A stretch of DNA of 64,000 nucleotides, taken from assembly GCF_002854065.1 (NCBI RefSeq), contig NZ_CP024147.1; one strand, given 5' to 3'. The stretch is from Escherichia coli. Its GTDB lineage: Bacteria; Pseudomonadota; Gammaproteobacteria; Enterobacterales; Enterobacteriaceae. This document shows positions 12,033 through 50,723 of this stretch, in pieces (the first letter of the stretch is position 1; every line of letters begins with the position of its first letter). The position numbers and the translations under genes are program-made. The notes under the pieces are model-generated. The model worked only from the letters and a program-made list of their open reading frames with translations. It ran no database searches and was not told the origin of the DNA.

Positions 12033-12304
12033 TTTGCTTGATCCCTATGAAATAACCGTACCGTTCATGAGACAATTCTAACCGTGAGCATTTCGCCGGT
12101 TGATTGTTTACGGCGAGACGGGAATTTGCTCACTTTTTGACTTTCCGTTACGCAACAGAAAAAGTTAAAAACGAAAAGACTAAAATCACATGTCTTGTGA
12201 CCTGCTAAATTGATTCACATGCTAAATCTGATAAGTTTTAATTTCAATGGTAGGTTTATTTCTTAGCTTTCGCTAGTAAACTGATAATCAGACAAAATGG
12301 TGAC
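12033..12304. promoter_or_regulatory. Divergent bcsR / bcsE intergenic control region (AT-rich)
   Basis: 272-bp AT-rich gap between divergently oriented bcsR (minus) and bcsE (plus); no individual promoter elements were mapped. Confidence 0.4.
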
Positions 12305-13876
12305 ATGAGGGACATTGTGGACCCTGTATTCTCTATCGGTATCTCATCATTATGGGATGAGCTGCGACATATGCCAGCAGGCGGCGTCTGGTGGTTTAAC
12401 GTCGATCGCCATGAAGATGCTATCAGTCTGGCGAATCAAACAATTGCATCCCAGGCTGAAACCGCACACGTCGCGGTCATTAGCATGGACAGCGATCCGG
12501 CGAAAATCTTTCAATTAGATGATTCTCAAGGGCCGGAAAAAATAAAATTATTTTCAATGCTAAATCATGAAAAAGGTCTATACTATTTGGCCCGTGATTT
12601 GCAGTGTTCTATTGATCCCCATAATTACCTTTTTATTCTTGTTTGCGCAAATAACGCATGGCAAAACATTCCTGCCGAGCGGCTGCGCTCATGGTTGGAT
12701 AAAATGAATAAATGGAGCAGGTTAAACCATTGTTCGCTTTTGGTAATTAATCCCGGAAATAATAACGATATACAATTTTCATTGTTGCTTGAGGAATACC
12801 GTTCACTTTTTGGTCTTGCCAGTTTGCGTTTTCAGGGCGACCAACATTTGCTGGATATTGCCTTCTGGTGCAACGAAAAAGGGGTCAGCGCCCGTCAGCA
12901 GCTTAGCGTTCAGCAACAAAATGGTATCTGGACATTAGTTCAAAGCGAAGAGGCGGAGATCCAACCACGCAGCGACGAAAAACGCATTCTGAGTAATGTT
13001 GCTGTACTGGAAGGTGCGCCGCCGCTATCGGAACACTGGCAACTGTTCAACAATAACGAAGTCCTGTTCAATGAAGCCCGTACCGCTCAGGCGGCGACGG
13101 TGGTCTTTTCTTTACAGCAAAATGCGCAAATCGAGCCACTGGCCCGCAGCATTCATACTCTGCGTCGCCAGCGCGGTAGTGCGATGAAAATCCTCGTACG
13201 GGAAAATACCGCTAGCCTGCGCGCCACCGATGAACGTTTGTTATTGGCCTGCGGTGCAAATATGGTTATCCCGTGGAATGCGCCACTCTCCCGCTGTCTG
13301 ACGATGATCGAAAGCGTGCAAGGGCAGAAGTTTAGTCGCTATGTGCCGGAAGATATCACTACCTTGCTGTCAATGACCCAGCCGCTCAAACTGCGTGGTT
13401 TCCAGAAGTGGGATGTGTTCTGTAATGCCGTCAACAACATGATGAATAACCCTCTTTTGCCTGCCCACGGTAAAGGTGTTCTGGTTGCCCTACGTCCGGT
13501 ACCGGGTATCCGCGTTGAGCAAGCCCTGACGCTATGTCGCCCTAACCGTACCGGCGATATCATGACCATTGGCGGTAATCGGCTGGTGCTGTTTCTCTCA
13601 TTCTGTCGGATTAACGATCTGGATACCGCGTTGAATCATATTTTCCCATTGCCTACTGGCGACATTTTCTCAAACCGTATGGTCTGGTTTGAAGATGATC
13701 AAATCAGTGCCGAGCTGGTGCAGATGCGCCTGCTTGCCCCAGAACAATGGGGCATGCCGCTGCCTTTAACACAAAGTTCTAAACCGGTCATCAATGCCGA
13801 GCACGATGGTCGCCACTGGCGACGAATACCAGAACCCATGCGACTGTTAGATGATGCTGTGGAGCGCTCATCATGA
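12305..13876 (+). CDS. bcsE: Cellulose biosynthesis protein BcsE (c-di-GMP-binding GIL domain)
   Basis: 523-aa [30 protein letters not shown]...; position and length match BcsE (YhjS). Confidence 0.9.
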
Positions 13877-24068: not shown

Positions 24069-24752
24069 ACCCTTTGCAGTGGGTTGTCGCTGCCTGACCT
24101 TTTTTGTTTTTTGCCCGGTCGGGTCAACGTTATGAGGTGGGGATGCCGTACTAATTAACATCAGTGTAACAGTGCGGATCCTCCATAAAATGCCCCTCGT
24201 GACCTACAATCTGTCAACAGAATGTGAAAACGTCAATACAGCCAACCGGGATTTACACCAACGGTGAGAATCCACAAACAAAGATTAAAAAAACTTCAAA
24301 CAGCTATTTGCAGCAGAGAAATTTGTGCTACTCCAACATGACCAGAACAATCAGCTTAATATTTAGCAACATTTGGTGATTAAGTTTTATGCATTTAATG
24401 AAAAAAATCTGAGGAAAAGGTGGATATCTGAGCGATTAATACCATGAACGCTAAAACGCACAGCGGAAAATGCCAGCGCCAGCCATAAGTAACGCAAAAA
24501 AAGATTTAAGCAAATATAAAAAAAGACAATGGTTTCTGTCACAAATCCGTTAATGGATAGTGAGATATGGGGCGCAAATTTGGCAGGGAAATGTGTGGTG
24601 TGCTGCCGTTTAGGTCGGATAAGACGGGTACGCTGCATCCGACAATGAGTGCGCTGCCGTTGCCTGATGCGACGCTGACGCGTCTTATCAGGCCTACGTC
24701 GAGTCGAACCTCCCTGCCCCCGGAGGTTCTCATCCTCTTCAGATCGCAGAAA

Positions 24753-24782
24753 GCAAAAAACCAGCCCGTAGGCTGGTTTTTC
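24753..24782 (-). terminator. Rho-independent terminator downstream of proK (bidirectional hairpin)
   Basis: ccagcc-cgta-ggctgg hairpin flanked by an A-run and a T-run, directly 3' of the tRNA on the minus strand. Confidence 0.6.
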
Positions 24783-24787
24783 TAAAT

Positions 24788-24864
<77 letters not shown>

Positions 24865-24955
24865 AATGCGGGGCGCATCTTACTGCGCAGATACGCCCTC
24901 GTCAATCCCTTAATAGCAAAATGCCTTTTGATCGGCGAGAAAGTCAGCAGGCCTC

Positions 24956-26647
24956 TTAGTTAGCCACTGCCTCTTTTGTCTGCGGGATGTGACACCAGTT
25001 GTTGTTTTCGTTAATTCCACCATCCGGTGAAGTATAGCCAAGACAACCCATGATGGTGTCGTACAGCTCTACGTGACGGCGTGGCACTTTCATGTCGGCT
25101 GCTTTTTTCAGCTGCGCAAACGCCTGCGCATTGACCGGATTTTCCAGATATTTATCTGACATCCAGACCATCATCGGTACGCGGAACTGCTCCGCCGGTG
25201 CCAGTTCACGCGGCGTGCCGTGCAGGTGCTCGCGTTCATTAATTGACTCGCCGTGGTCAGCGGCGTAGAACACAATAGCTTTCTTATCGCGAACCTGATC
25301 AATCACACTGGAGATAAAGTGATCCACATAGGTCACCGAGTTGTCATAGGAGTTGATCATCTGCGCTTTGGTACATCCGCTATCAACACCAATACATTCC
25401 GGCTTCCACTGCGCAAAGCTGCGCGGGTAACGCTGGGTGTAGTTAAAGTGCGAACCTTTGGTATGCAGAATGATTAGATGCTTACCATCCGGGTTGCGCC
25501 CCAGCGATTGCTGCATTTCGTCTACCAGCAACATATCATCTACCGGCTTGCCACGGTTACGTGGCTCCGCACCAATCTGTTCACGGTAAGCAATATTGTC
25601 CGCCATCGTATTGCTGTAGAACCACATTTCGCTCTGCATAGCGTAGAGGTCAGAACTGAATCCTAACTGCTTCAGTACCGCGAAAATGTTCTGTTCTTTT
25701 AATGTGCGCTGCGGATTATCTTCCGCGCCCCCCTGACGTACAAACATGCAACGCAGAGAGAGTTTGGTTGCGGTATCACAGGAGTAACCACGGAACGCCG
25801 CCAGATTTTTCTCCTGGGCCAGCTTCGGCGTGGTATTACGCTCATAGCCGAAAATGCCCATATGGTCCCAACGCGTAGTTTCACCGATGATAAACACGAC
25901 ATAAGTGTCATTAACATTTTGCGGTGCCTGATAAGTGAATTTCTTCGCCGGGTTAAGCAATGAATTATTATCGGAAGATTCATCGACCCGCGCCCAGGCG
26001 TACAGCCCCAACGCAGAAAGCCAGTTTGATGGCAGATAAGAGTTCGCTACGACACCGCCATAACTCGGCAAATCAACGCCGGTCGCCCTCTCCACTTTCT
26101 TCTGCTGGATATCCAGCAAACGAATCGGTGCCCAAACCATAATTCCCGCCAGTACGACGACCGCCAGGCTGCGAATACGCTGCCCTGGGGTTCGCAGTTG
26201 TCGGAGCAAGGTGTAGCGACAGCGGTTATTCCAGATAAGGATAAGAGGCAATGCGCTAACGGCGATTAACCAGAGAATAAAGTTCAGACCAACAACTTCT
26301 TTTGACAGGTCGATATCGGTGGTCATGACGGAAGCGATGATGCCATAACCAATGACCACATTAAGGAAGGTCATGTAATAGCTGGCACCTGCGGAAAAGA
26401 GCACAACCAGCGATGCCAGAATACGCCAACTGCGGCGGCCAAACAGCGAAAGAAGACGTAGTAAAAAGAAGGTCACCAGTACGGTGGCGGCCAGTTCAAC
26501 AACAGCAGAAATGCCTTTCCAGACGGTAAAATCGTGCGCATAGCTGCCGAAGCGGCGGTAAAAAACCGCGCCATTCATAAAAAGGCCAATATAGATTGCA
26601 AGCAAAAAGCTCAGCTTCTGCTGTGTAATCGATTTGATGTATCTCAT
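24956..26647 (-). CDS. eptB: Kdo2-lipid A phosphoethanolamine transferase EptB
   Basis: ORF 24956..26680; start trimmed to [23 protein letters not shown] (563 aa); N-terminal membrane helices plus sulfatase-like domain. Confidence 0.9.
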
Positions 26648-26901
26648 GCAAACAAACCCTGGACAAACAGGTGATAACACCCTGCTTAGCGGCTTTTCAG
26701 GCCCAGCAGGGGAAAAGTGCGGAGGTAGTCAGATAAGTAAAATCTACACGCGCGAATAAGTAGACCACAGCAAAGGGAAAAAGTGTGGGGAAAGAGTGTG
26801 CATGAAGCACAAATTTACAAAAGTGCAAGTCCGGAATAGACCATTTTAACGGATTAACGACTATTCAGAGATAGGTTGGGCCAGGATGCTGGCCCAGTAA
26901 C

Positions 26902-27432
26902 TTACTCATAGGTGATGGAAAAATTGACAAGGGCATTCGCTGTGCCACCAGTGGCCTGAGTGTTGACGACCACATAACTCGCCTGGTAGTGAAGCGACGT
27001 GGTTTCGCCATCAATCGCCCATTCAATCGGCGTTCCGCTGGAGCCTTTGGGTACTTGCTGCGTTCCTTTATCGTCCTCTATCTTCAACGCAACCCCCGTT
27101 GCGCCACCAGCCTCAAGGGCAAACATGGAATCATCATCGCTGTCCGACTGACTGTCCATCTCAACGGTCGCTTTGGATATCCCATCACACTCTTTGAGTT
27201 CAATGGTGAAATCTTTCTTGCTCAACACCGTACCGACTGCCGCAGGTTTTTGCAGCGTCATTGTTCCCATATCGACTTCGAGATCGCTTTTTTCCATCTC
27301 GCAAGCTTTAGTGGTGATAGTGATGGAGAAATGAATATCCCCTGCCGGGCCAAGATCCGTCGCCGCATTCACCCCGCAGGCAAACAGACTCAAACTGGCG
27401 ATGCCGCTATGCAGCAATAGATTGAATTTCAT
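26902..27432 (-). CDS. lpfE: Fimbrial minor subunit, LpfE-like
   Basis: Signal peptide MKFNLLLHSGIASLSLFACGVNA, fimbrial-subunit C-terminus ...ALVNFSITYE; last gene of the chaperone-usher cluster. Start uncertain (alternative MKWSDAM at 27450). Confidence 0.6.
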   Translation of the reverse strand: MKFNLLLHSGIASLSLFACGVNAATDLGPAGDIHFSITITTKACEMEKSDLEVDMGTMTLQKPAAVGTVLSKKDFTIELKECDGISKATVEMDSQSDSDDDSMFALEAGGATGVALKIEDDKGTQQVPKGSSGTPIEWAIDGETTSLHYQASYVVVNTQATGGTANALVNFSITYE

Positions 27433-27436
27433 GGCA

Positions 27437-28498
27437 TCACTCCATTTCAAGATATATGGTCGTTACGCCTTCAAACGTCCCGCCTTTAGGCGCTTTACCC
27501 GTCGTGCTAATCGGTAAAGCCAGCAGTCGAATCGCGGCATTGCGGTGAGTTTTAGAATCCAGGCTGCTCAAATTTAATAACGTGGTGCTGCTTGCATCAT
27601 TCGGTACCAAAATTTTGCCGCTGGAATCTTTCACCAGTACGCCAATATCGGGGTTGCCCATATCCACCGCTCGGGGATCGTCAGCATTGGTTGCCCCCTC
27701 AAGGCGCAACGAGACTTTGATACCATCCGAGATATTGTTGCAATCAAAGCCGAGGTTAATTTCTTGCTCTGTCGCACCTTCAGGCATTTGCCCTTGTCTG
27801 TTTTTAAACGCTGAGGAGGGGAATTCACCAAATGGCACATCCAGCACCGTGCCGGGCTTTATTTCGCAATCCTGAGTTATGGTGACGCGGCCCTGAATAG
27901 ATACGGAAGTTATGGGTATTGTTCCGTAATCTTTATTTGTTTTGGAGGCATACAGTTCGGCAATTAATGTAGGGGGAATGACTGAATCGCCGATAAAGGG
28001 TTTAGTAATCAAGAAAGAAAGTAATCCTCCTCCGCCCATATAAGGAGTAGTGATGACTTCATTACAGCCCGTTACCTGAAGCGCCTGTTGACCTTTAAAG
28101 GGGACAAAACCATATTGCCCCGAACTTACCTGAATTTTTGTAGATACAGACAGTTCATCGGTTAAGTAATAATACTTAAAACCACCGATATCCCTGGTCA
28201 TATTCGCTATTCCACTAACCCCTTGTATCAACGTATCTTTTTCAATTTTATAGTCACCCTTATCAGGACATTCACAAATTATCGATACATTTTGTCCATT
28301 CGACCAGTTAAGGACATCCGTTAAAACCGTCCCTGCGACGTTTTTACTTGCATCGGGAACACCGACATCCACATCGACGTTATAGTGATAGGTCGTGCCA
28401 TCCACAGGGGTACATGGCCCCCAGGAACCTCCGGCCAATGCCTTGCCAGAAAATCCGAATACGCATCCTAATAAAGATAATGCTATTGCCGCTTTCAT
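27437..28498 (-). CDS. lpfD: Fimbrial tip adhesin-like protein, LpfD-like
   Basis: ORF 27437..28522; start trimmed to signal peptide MKAAIALSLLGCVFGFSGKALA; about 353 aa, placed between usher and minor subunit. Confidence 0.6.
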   Translation of the reverse strand: MKAAIALSLLGCVFGFSGKALAGGSWGPCTPVDGTTYHYNVDVDVGVPDASKNVAGTVLTDVLNWSNGQNVSIICECPDKGDYKIEKDTLIQGVSGIANMTRDIGGFKYYYLTDELSVSTKIQVSSGQYGFVPFKGQQALQVTGCNEVITTPYMGGGGLLSFLITKPFIGDSVIPPTLIAELYASKTNKDYGTIPITSVSIQGRVTITQDCEIKPGTVLDVPFGEFPSSAFKNRQGQMPEGATEQEINLGFDCNNISDGIKVSLRLEGATNADDPRAVDMGNPDIGVLVKDSSGKILVPNDASSTTLLNLSSLDSKTHRNAAIRLLALPISTTGKAPKGGTFEGVTTIYLEME

Positions 28499-28512
28499 TT
28501 CGCTCTCCTTGC

Positions 28513-31086
28513 TTACTGGCAATTGGCTGAAACAGGAACAATTCCGCCCTGTTTTAATTCCAGGGATAATTTATATGGAGCCACGCATTGCTGCGACGCG
28601 TCATTACCCCATTTAATCAGTACCCGCCCTTCCTCTGGCATCCCGCTAATATAGAGCTGCCCTTCCTCACCGACGATACTGCTCACCTCGTTTTGTTTAT
28701 CGGTGATTAGCGTTGCCGTTGCTCCAAAGGGCACCGGACTGCCCGCGGAACGAAGCAGCGTCATTAATACGCGGTAACCAACGCGGGTATCAAAACGCGC
28801 TCTGACAATCGCTCCACGCGTTGGCACCACTTTCTGGAACGCATTTTCAACGTCAACATCGTCACCCAACGAATCGCTACGCAGTGAGATTTCGTTTTCA
28901 CGATACGGCATGGCGTAAGGCACGATCGCGTTACCCATCCAGTCAACCTGAACGCCGACGTTATTCACCACGCGGGCATTGCGCGCACCGGGTACGGAGA
29001 TGAGCGTCATGGTTTCGCCTAGCGGTTGGGAAAGCGTCACGCCTTCGCTATGAACTATCACGCCGCCGCGAACGCTGTAGTTGAGCTGCCGGTAATCTTT
29101 CCCGTAGCTATAGCCTACGTTGACATTACCGGACCCACCCTGATAGCCAACGTTAGCGTTACCGCTGTTACCCACACCGTTGCTGGCGTAGCCTTCCTGG
29201 ACACTGTAGCTCAGGTTGCGATCCTCAAGCAGCGTTCCGCTGACCCCAACCTGTTGATTGGTACGACCATCCTGGTCGGTCGTGACGCGATAGTTACTCC
29301 AGGCCCGGCCTAGTGGAACGGAAATATTGAAAGACCACAAGCGATCGCTTTCATCCCATTCAGGGCTTTTATTCCAGCTATATGCAATACTGTAACTGAC
29401 CTTGCCAATACGTCCGTTGTAACCCGCCGATACCGTGTTCTGTTTACCTGCGTCGTTCCAGTAATCCTGCTGCGTTAAATTTAAATAAACAGAGCCATAG
29501 GCCCCTAATTGCTGCGTCAGGTTACCCTGTATTTCGCTGCGCTTGTGATAACGGTTATAGTCGCTGTCAGCGTCACTGCGCACATCGGTGGCTTCCTGGA
29601 AGGTATAGAAACCGCTGGTAGAGTACCGATAGCCCGCAAGGCGGAAATCGGTGCCGCTTTCGAAGCTCTTGGAATATAAGAAACGATAAGATTGTCCCTG
29701 GCTATCGCGATCGTTATTCAGTTCGCTTTTAGCCTGCGTCACATCAATGGAAATCGCCCCGATATAACCAAAGTTTTTCCCTATCCCTAATGCAAATGCA
29801 TTGTAATTATTAGAGATTAATACGCCGCCGTAGGCCGTCATCCCCCACGGTAAACCGTAGATCAGATCAAGCTGCCCGAAACGCGGCGAGGCGCTGTCAT
29901 AATTCCCGGCCTGATATTCACCTGCGGCAAAGCTATATTTGAGATGGCCTTCACGCTGGAAAATTGGCACCGATGAGAATGGCTGAATAAAGCGTTGTTC
30001 ACTGCCATCCGCTTCTTTAATAATGACCGTGAGATCACCGCTGTTTGCAGTGGGGTAAAGATCGTTTATTTCAAAGGCACCAGGCTGCACATAGGTGCGA
30101 TAAATAACGTAGCCGTTTTGTTCAATACTGACTTCGGCGTTGCTTTTGGCGATCCCTCGAACGATGGGTGCAAAGCCTCGCTGGCTGTCGGGCAGCATCT
30201 CTTCATCAGAGGCTAACATCGCGCCACGCATCTGAACGCTGTCAAAAATATCCCCCGCGGTCGCCGTATCCCCCATTGTTAATTGCGCTTTGAAAGGGAT
30301 GATGGCCCTACTCAAAGACGTACCGATATTATCCCACTGCGCTTTGCCACCGGAATGGCTCCAGGTACTGTAATTCCGTAACCGCCAAGCGCCAAGGTTC
30401 AGCCCGCTGCGTAAGTTGAGGTAGTAGCTGTCGCTCTTTAGCGTATCTTTACCATCATCATGATGAACAGTGCCATTATCATCGACATAACTGCTGGAAG
30501 ACCCCGAAGAGTCATATTCACTGTTGCTCCCGCTAAAACTGTAATCCAGCAATAATGCCGGGATACCTTCGTCCCATAAAGATTCCGGCACCGTGCCGCG
30601 CGCCACCTGGTGCATCGCCGCCTGAGGGAAACTTAATACCAGCTTTTGTTCACTGAAGTCGAAATGGCTTGAGGCCTGGGGAATGATTTCGTCAAACGGT
30701 ACGCAGGCTTCGGCAGGCACCTGATTCAGGGTCGGAAAGCTTTCAACGCGCACGCCCATCTCTGCCAGTTGCGTCCGGCTAAGGCAAGGCACAAGGGATT
30801 CCCCCATCGCTTTGCGCTGTGCTTCTGTGGCCTCTTTAAATTCCAGTGTGCGGGTTTCCATTCTCTGTTCATTGACGTAAACAGAGACACGATAGATGCC
30901 GGGTAACTGCTGTTCCTGGCCTTTTTCGAACATCGTTAAATCGACATGCTGACCCACACCCTGAACGTCCTCCAGGAATTTGGGGTTAAACTTTCCGGCA
31001 TGTGCAGAAAACGTGCTGGCAACAGCAACCGCCACCACAGAGATAGAAAAGGAAGAAAAAGTACGTGAAACGGTCTTCCGTGACAT
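28513..31086 (-). CDS. lpfC: Outer-membrane fimbrial usher, LpfC-like (reading frame intact)
   Basis: 857-aa ORF MSRKTVSRTFSSFSISVVAVAVASTFSAHA... with usher-type beta-barrel and plug regions; single uninterrupted frame. Confidence 0.8.
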   Translation of the reverse strand: MSRKTVSRTFSSFSISVVAVAVASTFSAHAGKFNPKFLEDVQGVGQHVDLTMFEKGQEQQLPGIYRVSVYVNEQRMETRTLEFKEATEAQRKAMGESLVPCLSRTQLAEMGVRVESFPTLNQVPAEACVPFDEIIPQASSHFDFSEQKLVLSFPQAAMHQVARGTVPESLWDEGIPALLLDYSFSGSNSEYDSSGSSSSYVDDNGTVHHDDGKDTLKSDSYYLNLRSGLNLGAWRLRNYSTWSHSGGKAQWDNIGTSLSRAIIPFKAQLTMGDTATAGDIFDSVQMRGAMLASDEEMLPDSQRGFAPIVRGIAKSNAEVSIEQNGYVIYRTYVQPGAFEINDLYPTANSGDLTVIIKEADGSEQRFIQPFSSVPIFQREGHLKYSFAAGEYQAGNYDSASPRFGQLDLIYGLPWGMTAYGGVLISNNYNAFALGIGKNFGYIGAISIDVTQAKSELNNDRDSQGQSYRFLYSKSFESGTDFRLAGYRYSTSGFYTFQEATDVRSDADSDYNRYHKRSEIQGNLTQQLGAYGSVYLNLTQQDYWNDAGKQNTVSAGYNGRIGKVSYSIAYSWNKSPEWDESDRLWSFNISVPLGRAWSNYRVTTDQDGRTNQQVGVSGTLLEDRNLSYSVQEGYASNGVGNSGNANVGYQGGSGNVNVGYSYGKDYRQLNYSVRGGVIVHSEGVTLSQPLGETMTLISVPGARNARVVNNVGVQVDWMGNAIVPYAMPYRENEISLRSDSLGDDVDVENAFQKVVPTRGAIVRARFDTRVGYRVLMTLLRSAGSPVPFGATATLITDKQNEVSSIVGEEGQLYISGMPEEGRVLIKWGNDASQQCVAPYKLSLELKQGGIVPVSANCQ

Positions 31087-31229
31087 TGAGCTATTTCTCC
31101 TGAAAAGATATTAATCAATCAACATTTTTAGTGATCATTTCCGCTGACGATCCAAAGTCATTGATGGCGTTATAGGTGATGCTGCCAACTTACTGATTTA
31201 GTGTATGATGGTGTTTTTGAGGTGCTCCA

Positions 31230-31505
31230 GTGGCTTCTGTTTCTATCAGCTGTCCCTCCTGTTCAGCTACTGACGGGGTGGTGCGTAACGGCAAAAGCAC
31301 TGCCGGACATCAGCGCTATCTCTGCTCTCACTGCCGTAAAACATGGCAACTGCAGTTCACTTACACCGCTTCTCAACCCGGTACGCACCAGAAAATCATT
31401 GATATGGCCATGAATGGCGTTGGATGCCGGGCAACCGCCCGCATTATGGGCGTTGGCCTCAACACGATTTTCCGCCATTTAAAAAACTCAGGCCGCAGTC
31501 GGTAA
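31230..31505 (+). CDS. insA: IS1 InsA (DNA-binding regulator/repressor)
   Basis: 91-aa [43 protein letters not shown]... (zinc-finger-like Cys pairs). Confidence 0.9.
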
Positions 31506-31927
31506 CCTCGCGCATACAGCCGGGCAGTGACGTCATCGTCTGCGCGGAAATGGACGAACAGTGGGGATACGTCGGGGCTAAATCGCGCCAGCGCTGGCTG
31601 TTTTACGCGTATGACAGGCTCCGGAAGACGGTTGTTGCGCACGTATTCGGTGAACGCACTATGGCGACGCTGGGGCGTCTTATGAGCCTGCTGTCACCCT
31701 TTGACGTGGTGATATGGATGACGGATGGCTGGCCGCTGTATGAATCCCGCCTGAAGGGAAAGCTGCACGTAATCAGCAAGCGATATACGCAGCGAATTGA
31801 GCGGCATAACCTGAATCTGAGGCAGCACCTGGCACGGCTGGGACGGAAGTCGCTGTCGTTCTCAAAATCGGTGGAGCTGCATGACAAAGTCATCGGGCAT
31901 TATCTGAACATAAAACACTATCAATAA
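31424..31927 (+). CDS. insB: IS1 InsB (transposase is made as an InsAB' fusion by -1 frameshift)
   Basis: 167-aa ORF in the -1 frame relative to insA, as in canonical IS1. Confidence 0.85.
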
Positions 31928-32515
31928 GTTGGAGTCATTACCGGCGTTATATTTAATTTTAGAAACGCTACCTACCCCGGCGGGTAATGTGATATTTAAT
32001 GCCCCTTTAGCGGGTACCATGCCTGCTTTTTCAATTTCTTTGTCATTCGCAAAAAATTGATTAAAGGTAATATTAAAAACTGTCGGATTATCAACGCGGA
32101 GCTGATTACCGTTACGCGTAAATCGCAGTTCATTTGGCGCGGTTTTTACATCACCCTTTAAACCTGCCGGGCGATAAAAAAGTTTGATTCGGGTGCGAAC
32201 GGCAATCTGCAAAACATTTTTGTTTTCGCTGTCGTCACTTTTAGATGGAATGGCTTTCACATTAACCCAGTAGACCGATTCGCGATCCTGAGGCAGGCCG
32301 GGCGTAATATTCACAATACGCAAAATATTGTTCTTTTCTGGATCAAGCTTGAATAGTGGGGGCGTAATAATAAACGGTGTTTTTTTGCTGCCCGCGGCAT
32401 CATCCACCCAGGATTGGATAAGAAACTCTTCCGTCTTACTTTTATTCTGTACGGTCAGCGGGTGATGCTGCCAACTTACTGATTTAGTGTATGATGGTGT
32501 TTTTGAGGTGCTCCA

Positions 32516-32791
32516 GTGGCTTCTGTTTCTATCAGCTGTCCCTCCTGTTCAGCTACTGACGGGGTGGTGCGTAACGGCAAAAGCACCGCCGGACATCAGC
32601 GCTATCTCTGCTCTCACTGCCGTAAAACATGGCAACTGCAGTTCACTTACACCGCTTCTCAACCCGGTACGCACCAGAAAATCATTGATATGGCCATGAA
32701 TGGCGTTGGATGCCGGGCAACTGCCCGCATTATGGGCGTTGGCCTCAACACGATTTTACGTCACTTAAAAAACTCAGGCCGCAGTCGGTAA
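32516..32791 (+). CDS. insA: IS1 InsA, copy B
   Basis: 91-aa ORF; one substitution relative to copy A (NTILRHL versus NTIFRHL). Confidence 0.9.
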
Positions 32792-33213
32792 CCTCGCGCA
32801 TACAGCCGGGCAGTGACGTCATCGTCTGCGCGGAAATGGACGAACAGTGGGGCTATGTCGGGGCTAAATCGCGCCAGCGCTGGCTGTTTTACGCGTATGA
32901 CAGTCTCCGGAAGACGGTTGTTGCGCACGTATTCGGTGAACGCACTATGGCGACGCTGGGGCGTCTTATGAGCCTGCTGTCACCCTTTGACGTGGTGATA
33001 TGGATGACGGATGGCTGGCCGCTGTATGAATCCCGCCTGAAGGGAAAGCTGCACGTAATCAGCAAGCGATATACGCAGCGAATTGAGCGGCATAACCTGA
33101 ATCTGAGGCAGCACCTGGCACGGCTGGGACGGAAGTCGCTGTCGTTCTCAAAATCGGTGGAGCTGCATGACAAAGTCATCGGGCATTATCTGAACATAAA
33201 ACACTATCAATAA
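32710..33213 (+). CDS. insB: IS1 InsB, copy B
   Basis: 167-aa ORF; differs from copy A at several residues (MPGNCPHY...DFTSLKK...YDSLRK versus MPGNRPHY...DFPPFKK...YDRLRK). Confidence 0.85.
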
Positions 33214-33419
33214 GTTGGAGTCATTACCCGGTCAGCGAGGCTTCTTTCTTACTGCCATCATAAATTACGCGAGTAGAGCTAAGTCCGACGCCACCCGCCA
33301 GAACTGACTGTGAAAGGAACAGAGAGAGAGCCAACGCAACAAATTTACTTTTCATCATTCGATCCATGAACTTTGACGACTAATGGCGGCAATTACGCCG
33401 CCATTTGTAAAACGGACGA

Positions 33420-48897: not shown

Positions 48898-49421
48898 ACG
48901 TGAGTTATTCGCTGTATTCTTCCTGGGTAACCTGTGTTTCTTTTGGTGGGTTTATTCCGGCATCACGAATATTTTTCTGCACCGCTACTGCACCAAACAA
49001 GCTTAAGAAGAAAGCCAGTCCATAAAAACCTTTTTCGCTGAGTAATAATGTCGCATTCCACAGACCTACCATCAGTAATGCAACAGAGATAATAAAGACA
49101 GTCAGGCAGGTCATATAATAAATGGAAGTGGTCGGTATGCCTTCATACTTGTCCCGAACAGTCTTTTGATAAGACGCCGCAGAAAACAGTCCTAATACCA
49201 GTACGGCAAAATAATATCCTTTTTCATTTAACTGCATCTCTGCATTCCATAGCCCTAACAGATAGGTAACGATACCACCAACGAGAGCTATCCATGACAC
49301 AATACTAAAGGCCGGTGAATAGGTTGATATTAGACTGGCCCCCTGAATCTCCAGACAACCAATATCACTTAAATAAGTGATAGTCTTAATACTAGTTTTT
49401 AGACTAGTCATTGGAGAACAG

Positions 49422-49787
49422 ATGATTGATGTCTTAGGGCCGGAGAAACGCAGACGGCGTACCACACAGGAAAAGATCGCAATTGTTCAGCAGAGCTTTG
49501 AACCGGGGATGACGGTCTCCCTCGTTGCCCGGCAACATGGTGTAGCAGCCAGCCAGTTATTTCTCTGGCGTAAGCAATACCAGGAAGGAAGTCTTACTGC
49601 TGTCGCCGCCGGAGAACAGGTTGTTCCTGCCTCTGAACTTGCTGCCGCCATGAAGCAGATTAAAGAACTCCAGCGCCTGCTCGGCAAGAAAACGATGGAA
49701 AATGAACTCCTCAAAGAAGCCGTTGAATATGGACGGGCAAAAAAGTGGATAGCGCACGCGCCCTTATTGCCCGGGGATGGGGAGTAA
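49422..49787 (+). CDS. insC: IS2 OrfA (InsC), HTH transposase N-terminal component
   Basis: 121-aa frame from [41 protein letters not shown]...; the track ORF starts 45 nt earlier at an upstream ATG. Confidence 0.9.
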
Positions 49788-50650
49788 GCTTAGTCAGCCG
49801 TTGTCTCCGGGTGTCGCGTGCGCAGTTGCACGTCATTCTCAGACGAACCGATGACTGGATGGATGGCCGCCGCAGTCGTCACACTGATGATACGGATGTG
49901 CTTCTCCGTATACACCATGTTATCGGAGAGCTGCCCACGTATGGTTATCGTCGGGTATGGGCGCTGCTTCGCAGACAGGCAGAACTTGATGGTATGCCTG
50001 CGATCAATGCCAAACGTGTTTACCGGATCATGCGCCAGAATGCGCTGTTGCTTGAGCGAAAACCTGCTGTACCGCCATCGAAACGGGCACATACAGGCAG
50101 AGTGGCCGTGAAAGAAAGCAATCAGCGATGGTGCTCTGACGGGTTCGAGTTCTGCTGTGATAACGGAGAGAGACTGCGTGTCACGTTCGCGCTGGACTGC
50201 TGTGATCGTGAGGCACTGCACTGGGCGGTCACTACCGGCGGCTTCAACAGTGAAACAGTACAGGACGTCATGCTGGGAGCGGTGGAACGCCGCTTCGGCA
50301 ACGATCTTCCGTCGTCTCCAGTGGAGTGGCTGACGGATAATGGTTCATGCTACCGGGCTAATGAAACACGCCAGTTCGCCCGGATGTTGGGACTTGAACC
50401 GAAGAACACGGCGGTGCGGAGTCCGGAGAGTAACGGAATAGCAGAGAGCTTCGTGAAAACGATAAAGCGTGACTACATCAGTATCATGCCCAAACCAGAC
50501 GGGTTAACGGCAGCAAAGAACCTTGCAGAGGCGTTCGAGCATTATAACGAATGGCATCCGCATAGTGCGCTGGGTTATCGCTCGCCACGGGAATATCTGC
50601 GGCAGCGGGCTTGTAATGGGTTAAGTGATAACAGATGTCTGGAAATATAG
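49745..50650 (+). CDS. insD: IS2 OrfB (InsD), DDE integrase-fold transposase component (fused to OrfA by -1 frameshift)
   Basis: 301-aa [26 protein letters not shown]... overlapping the insC 3' end in the -1 frame. Confidence 0.9.
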
Positions 50651-50723
50651 GGGCAAATCCAGATATTTTGTTGTCCATCACAGTATTCCTTTCATTCCTG
50701 AATGTGTAAGAGCTTTATATTGC

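Follow-up and report, generated by a model that had tools for sequence, protein, structure and literature searches.

Two IS1 elements of different isoform type within the lpfB chaperone gene of an Escherichia coli long polar fimbria operon

Two copies of IS1, designated here A and B, lie inside lpfB, a gene of the long polar fimbria operon lpfABCDE that encodes its PapD-type periplasmic chaperone, in the 64-kb stretch of Escherichia coli DNA that was analyzed as a whole and that we refer to as the window. The most satisfactory explanation, and one that we consider very probable, is that two different and well-known IS1 isoforms entered this gene by two independent simple transpositions. Everything at the locus is already known in kind, since it consists of canonical IS1 isoforms, 9-bp duplications, and a known operon at a known site, and it is a case of routine genome decay and not a new element.

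A chaperone gene in three pieces

The elements, their target-site duplications (TSDs), and the surrounding operon genes are placed as follows.

31175..31942, plus strand: IS1 copy A, 768 bp, IS1B/C-type isoform, terminal inverted repeats intact (IRL 31175-31197; IRR 31920-31942)
31230..31927, plus strand: coding region of copy A, with insA at 31230-31505 (91 aa), the insB' frame extending to 31927, and A6C at 31481-31487
31166..31174 (left) and 31943..31951 (right): TSD of copy A, GGCGTTATA, corresponding to lpfB nt 628-636
32461..33228, plus strand: IS1 copy B, 768 bp, IS1A/E ("consensus") type isoform, ends intact
32516..33213, plus strand: coding region of copy B, with insA at 32516-32791, the insB' frame extending to 33213, and A6C at 32767-32773
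32452..32460 (left) and 33229..33237 (right): TSD of copy B, CGGTCAGCG, corresponding to lpfB nt 119-127
33420..33944, minus strand: lpfA1, major fimbrial subunit, intact, the first gene of the operon
33229..33355, minus strand: lpfB 5' fragment, 127 nt with the start codon at 33355, collinear with and identical to lpfB of strain 100416
31943..32460, minus strand: lpfB middle fragment, which is the 518-bp "spacer" between the two copies
31115..31174, minus strand: lpfB 3' fragment, 60 nt including the stop codon
28513..31086, minus strand: lpfC usher, intact, 857 aa, downstream of the broken lpfB, with PapC_N, Usher, and PapC_C (Pfam), annotated lpfC in relatives

The operon runs in the order lpfA, lpfB, lpfC, lpfD, lpfE at a site between eptB (yhjW) and yhjX, and it has the content of a chaperone-usher (Lpf) operon: lpfA, lpfD, and lpfE are recorded as Fimbrial, lpfC is the usher, and lpfB has both PapD_N and PapD_C once it is reconstructed. 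When the two elements are removed in silico together with one of the paired copies of each TSD, the resulting sequence has 0 mismatches in 2,646 positions to E. coli strain 100416 (NZ_CM128593.1), in which lpfB is intact and encodes 228 aa with PapD_N and PapD_C. In its present state, the spacer region holds a 181-aa ORF that runs into copy A and on which PapD_N is recorded (Pfam). The chromosomal site and the gene order are shared with the lpf1 operon of E. coli O157:H7 (lpfABCC'DE, O island 141), which likewise lies between yhjW/eptB and yhjX, and O157 genomes are 98.4% identical to the window over its non-IS parts. Whereas lpfB is intact in O157 and in most E. coli, the IS1 copies have left it in three pieces here. 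Our search of the literature on lpfB::IS1 found nothing relevant.

Insertion A falls at codons 210-212, inside the PapD_C profile match (162-218), and would clip the last residues of that domain; as a further consequence, 768 bp of IS1 now lie between lpfB and lpfC. Insertion B interrupts lpfB at codon 40-43, and from this position it is predicted to be unambiguously inactivating. Chaperone-usher pathways assemble no fimbria without the chaperone, and the fimbrial function of Lpf has in all likelihood been lost. A consensus scan for an outward promoter leading from copy A toward lpfC found nothing on the minus strand that faces this gene; it picked up only the insA promoter, which is known to lie in each IRL and points inward. 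For annotation, lpfB here should be treated as a pseudogene split in three, and the strain should be recorded as having a nonfunctional Lpf fimbria.

The two copies are in direct orientation with a start-to-start spacing of 1,286 bp and a spacer of 518 bp. A preliminary description of this DNA, made from its letters, had given exactly these coordinates, this direct-repeat layout, and this separation for two 768-bp copies, and it had placed copy A 88 bp from the usher start, which agrees with the lpfC ATG at 31086. The 23-mer of the IS1 left end occurs exactly twice in the 64-kb window against 0 expected from shuffles. In length and termini, both copies conform to the IS1 family (about 768 bp, with imperfect inverted repeats of about 23 bp), and their ends, GGTGATGCTGCCAACTTACTGAT / GGTAATGACTCCAACTTATTGAT, are those of K-12 IS1A-E. 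Each copy is also separately enclosed by a perfect TSD of the 9 bp that is standard for the family, GGCGTTATA for A and CGGTCAGCG for B. These TSDs, and the location of the copies inside lpfB, are features that the preliminary description did not contain.

Isoform identity and transposase proteins

A base-by-base comparison of 31175-31942 with 32461-33228 finds differences between A and B at 8 of 768 nt (99.0% identity), so the earlier statement that the copies are not identical holds at the nucleotide level. The differences lie at IS positions 127, 262, 298, 301, 304, 393, 396, and 444, and the mismatch-free runs shared by the copies include IS positions 445-768 (324 bp) and stretches of 134 and 126 bp. 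Measured against a reference set of six annotated IS1 elements extracted from K-12 MG1655, their distances are as follows.

Copy A to IS1B/IS1C: 1 nt (position 704)
Copy A to IS1A/IS1E: 8 nt
Copy B to IS1A/IS1E: 1 nt (position 262, T versus A)
Copy B to IS1B/IS1C: 9 nt
Copy A or copy B to IS1F: more than 70 nt

At the diagnostic positions 127, 298, 301, 304, 393, 396, and 444, A has the IS1B/C allele at 7 of 7 and B the IS1A/E allele at 7 of 7. On this pattern, the eight differences between the copies are the classical differences between type II and type I isoforms of IS1, two types that are separated by 9 mismatches (PMC12428005). Since A is nearest to IS1B/C and B is nearest to IS1A/E, the comparison supports the view that B was not copied from A and that the two represent different IS1 variants. 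The preliminary description had suggested that the second insertion came from another variant and had proposed classification against the IS1 isoforms as a check, and that classification, with A as IS1B/C type and B as IS1A/E type, comes out in its favor.

Copy A shares 767 of 768 nt with IS1B/IS1C of K-12 (type II), together with common ends, F81, R130, and the A6C site. It departs from them in one respect, in that K-12 IS1B/C carry L217Q in InsAB', whereas copy A does not, its base at IS position 704 being T, which is also that of IS1A. Copy B shares 767 of 768 nt with IS1A/IS1E of K-12 (type I, the "consensus" IS1 of PMC12428005), and its InsA and InsAB' are identical to theirs; the one silent change, at position 262, turns MPGNSPHY into MPGNCPHY in the untranslated part of insB. 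Position 262 (window 31436 / 32722) is tri-allelic, with C in A and IS1B/C, T in B, and A in IS1A/D/E, and all three alleles are synonymous (Thr) in insA, the change being confined to the untranslated upstream insB ORF. The exact insB ORFs of A and of B are both widespread, each occurring on at least 1,000 contigs. An element identical to A in another genome, CUWW06, carries the PGAP label [quoted passage not shown]

IS1 expresses InsA and, through a −1 frameshift at A6C, the fusion InsAB', and it makes no separate insB protein (PMC12428005). This insA/insB' frameshift organization of the IS1 family is present in both copies, as in the elements described there, with A6C at IS positions 307-313, an insA of 91 aa, and an InsAB' fusion of 232 aa. 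Both fusions carry Zn_ribbon_InsA, HTH_Tnp_IS1, and DDE_Tnp_IS1 (Pfam; E = 3.7e-78 and 9.1e-78 for DDE_Tnp_IS1). Six of the 8 nucleotide differences cause no amino acid change in the frames that are really translated, which leaves F81L as the only change between InsA of A and of B, and F81L with R130S between the InsAB' fusions. InsAB' of B is the same protein as InsAB' of K-12 IS1A, from which InsAB' of A differs by L81F and S130R.

These frames bear directly on the protein differences that had been pointed out before. The single F versus L difference in InsA is real (...NTIFRHL... in A, ...NTILRHL... in B). The accompanying statement that InsB differs at several residues holds for the ORF translations, in which those residues are present, but it is overstated as a statement about proteins. 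The differences at MPGN(R/C)PHY and DF(PPF/TSL)KK lie in the insB frame upstream of A6C and are part of no protein, and since that stretch of the frame is untranslated, most of the quoted "InsB" differences are not protein differences.

Relatives, order of insertion, and competing origins

Relatives were drawn from an E. coli collection without Shigella-labelled genomes, and all counts of relatives are lower bounds. In the genome CUWW06 (NZ_CP182139.1; wastewater, Thailand), site A is occupied, at precisely this position, by an IS1 that is identical to A, and site B is empty. Between the window and CUWW06, there are 0 mismatches (100%) over 24600-37261 outside the IS differences, which are copy B and two IS elements found in CUWW06 only. 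Over 36594-64000 the mismatches number 7, and 100.0% identity was reported for the first 22.7 kb. The NCTC assembly UGBN01000001.1 is in the same A-only state, again with an IS1 identical to copy A, and two draft assemblies end at the left junction of site A. A hybrid ORF that is diagnostic of the A-only state was found on 19 contigs, which include two NCBI genomes, the others shown being ENA metagenome contigs. In many other genomes with the same lpfC allele, sites A and B are both empty.

A second case of A and B together is provided by a 794-bp ENA metagenome contig, ERZ27255804 k141_8680, which matches window 31804-32597 exactly and runs from the last part of IS1 A across the spacer into the first part of IS1 B, with the B-type base at position 127. 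Both copies together were seen in no complete E. coli genome in RefSeq, Shigella-labelled genomes being outside the collection, and the left junction of copy B had 0 exact matches in species-representative genomes. B without A was never seen among the relatives examined. Because relatives carry A alone and B without A is unseen, we infer, by parsimony only, that A came first and is common to the clone and that B is a later and recent addition in a sub-lineage. The existence of near relatives with A alone, along with the separate TSD of each copy, also bears out the earlier proposal that the second insertion had an origin of its own.

The A and A+B states are handy clonal markers for the lineage. 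The ENA assemblies with the site-A allele (ERZ272xxxxx) have numerically close accessions and presumably come from one study; one of them has A+B. In the A-only allele of CUWW06, RefSeq/PGAP calls an intact 238-aa "lpfB" (WP_050438665.1, CUWW06 piece 7263-7979), which consists of LpfB residues 1 to about 212 plus a tail from the right end of IS1 and is an annotation artifact that hides the disruption.

On the preferred account, an IS1B/C-type element first entered lpfB at nt 628-636, clipping the end of PapD_C and parting lpfB from lpfC, and an IS1A/E-type element whose donor was a different IS1 copy in the cell later entered at nt 119-127. Both insertions generated the 9-bp target duplications typical of IS1, and the outcome is a dead chaperone gene in three pieces with, as a by-product, 99%-identical direct repeats around 518 bp of lpfB. 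A donor of IS1A type is what one would expect for B, since IS1A/E-type elements dominate IS1 transposition in K-12.

An alternative is that a local duplicative hop of A gave rise to B and that gene conversion from another IS1 then turned the new copy into the IS1A type. The copies are only 518 bp apart and alike in orientation, as such a hop would suggest, and all 8 differences fall within IS positions 127-444, so that a single conversion tract could suffice. We nonetheless consider this history very unlikely, since it requires two events where one would do and since B has the full canonical IS1A haplotype and a private T at position 262 besides. The behavior of IS1 argues against it as well, because mutation-accumulation data contain simple IS1 insertions without local hopping (PMC12065110) and because nearly all IS1 transposition in K-12 comes from elements of the IS1A/E type (PMC12428005).

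It might also be supposed that IS1-lpfB'-IS1 is a Tn9-like composite transposon that was inserted, or is mobile, as a single 2,054-bp piece, given that two direct IS1 copies around a short segment are the layout of Tn9 and that IS1 pairs do mobilize the DNA between them (PMC12065110). The flanks, however, give this idea scarcely any credibility: the sequences at the two outer ends are different, GGCGTTATA on the left against CGGTCAGCG on the right, a separate matching TSD accompanies each IS1, and the spacer has no second copy in the window. The 518-bp cargo is furthermore collinear with the lpfB sequence around it, and this, together with the exact reconstruction of the empty site, indicates that the unit was built in situ. 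As an account of origin, arrival as a unit is refuted by the absence of an outer TSD and by a cargo that is simply collinear lpfB. The arrangement does resemble Tn9, the IS1-flanked r-determinant of R100/NR1, and the K-12 argF region (IS1B...IS1C), in all of which direct IS1 repeats bracket a segment as they do here, and Tn9 is an IS1-flanked unit able to transpose whole (cited in PMC12065110). In contrast to these three, the cargo here is 518 bp from a broken gene and offers nothing selectable, and the unit was formed in place by two separate insertions.

That one of the copies is an assembly artifact produced by misplacement of a repeat is extremely improbable, for although IS1 is a multicopy repeat that often confuses assemblers and the pair is found in no complete RefSeq E. 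coli genome, the copies have clean ends, perfect 9-bp TSDs, and 8 differing positions, and the independent assembly ERZ27255804 k141_8680 passes exactly from the end of A through the spacer into the start of B. Gene conversion and assembly artifact were both considered and are rejected on this evidence, and two independent transpositions remain the preferred account.

Instability of the repeat pair and IS activity around lpf

Direct pairs of IS1 classically recombine, so that the bracketed segment is excised or amplified. The present copies are direct repeats that share a 324-bp identical stretch, and the mechanism is for this reason sound: the pair may collapse to a single IS1 with a 1,286-bp deletion. 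Either replication misalignment or homologous recombination could bring this about, and for the latter the 324 identical bp at the 3' end would be the easiest ground. The predicted product is a single IS1 with the nonmatching flanks GGCGTTATA ... CGGTCAGCG. A crossover within the 3' run would yield a pure A-type element. The identical runs of 324, 134, and 126 bp far exceed the minimal homology for recombination in E. coli, and for repeats as close as these, RecA-independent slipped misalignment and adjacent deletion driven by the IS1 transposase are also known routes. The preliminary description had called the deletion "RecA-mediated," which is an incomplete account of the routes to it. Insertions near an existing IS1 tend to become deletions, and in the system where this was observed, loss of recA lowered such events only 2-4 fold (PMC12065110).

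A search for the predicted one-IS1 product with a synthetic query (A left flank, IS1, B right flank) gave 0 of 5,426 complete E. coli genomes at 80% or more coverage, in a set where the lineage is rare and only CUWW06 has site A. The best match to the query was CUWW06, which is simply in the A-only state. At the IS1 pair, a 1,286-bp deletion could distinguish one assembly or population from another.

The activity of the A-type element deserves separate consideration. K-12 IS1B/C barely transpose (PMC12428005). CUWW06 has two identical A-type IS1 copies with different TSDs within 14 kb, and since the A type occurs at two CUWW06 sites with separate TSDs and its ORF is on at least 1,000 contigs, the type may be mobile. 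We would suggest only tentatively, and with some doubt, that the A-type element (F81/R130, without L217Q) may transpose fully in wild E. coli and that in this clone lpf may act as a hot spot for IS1. If the A type is indeed proficient, then the near-inactivity of IS1B/C in K-12 would be due to the K-12-specific L217Q (IS position 704, window 31878).

Three independent IS1 insertions are now seen within about 2.8 kb of lpf, namely at sites A and B and at the CUWW06 site upstream of lpfA. Against 0 SNPs over 24600-37261 and 7 SNPs over 36594-64000, the window and CUWW06 show four IS differences, a high IS turnover in relation to point mutation. The clustering of IS1 in lpf could mean that this is a hot region, or it could simply reflect relaxed selection on a dead operon. 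A hot spot might in turn reflect AT-rich, H-NS-bound DNA. The region is somewhat AT-rich, with a GC content of 43% in the spacer and 37-44% upstream of lpfA, and base composition as a cause of the clustering is suggestive only. The locus offers a small natural example of the known accumulation of IS elements in accessory operons once these are already broken, and its importance is slight beyond annotation and strain typing.

A few further elements were noted in the course of the comparison. A third IS1, present in CUWW06 and identical to A, occupies CUWW06 piece 8600-9367 (equivalent to window 33967-33975), with the TSD ATTAATGTG, 11 bp upstream of the longest lpfA ORF, and CUWW06 also has an IS5 in yhjY (piece 11851-12831); both are absent from the window. 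The window in turn has an IS2 (1,331 bp, 49331-50661) with the 5-bp duplication GATAT at 49326-49330 and 50662-50666, inserted in yiaA some 12 nt from its 5' end. This IS2 is missing in CUWW06 and in strain 100416, and by that distribution it is another recent, lineage-specific IS gain.
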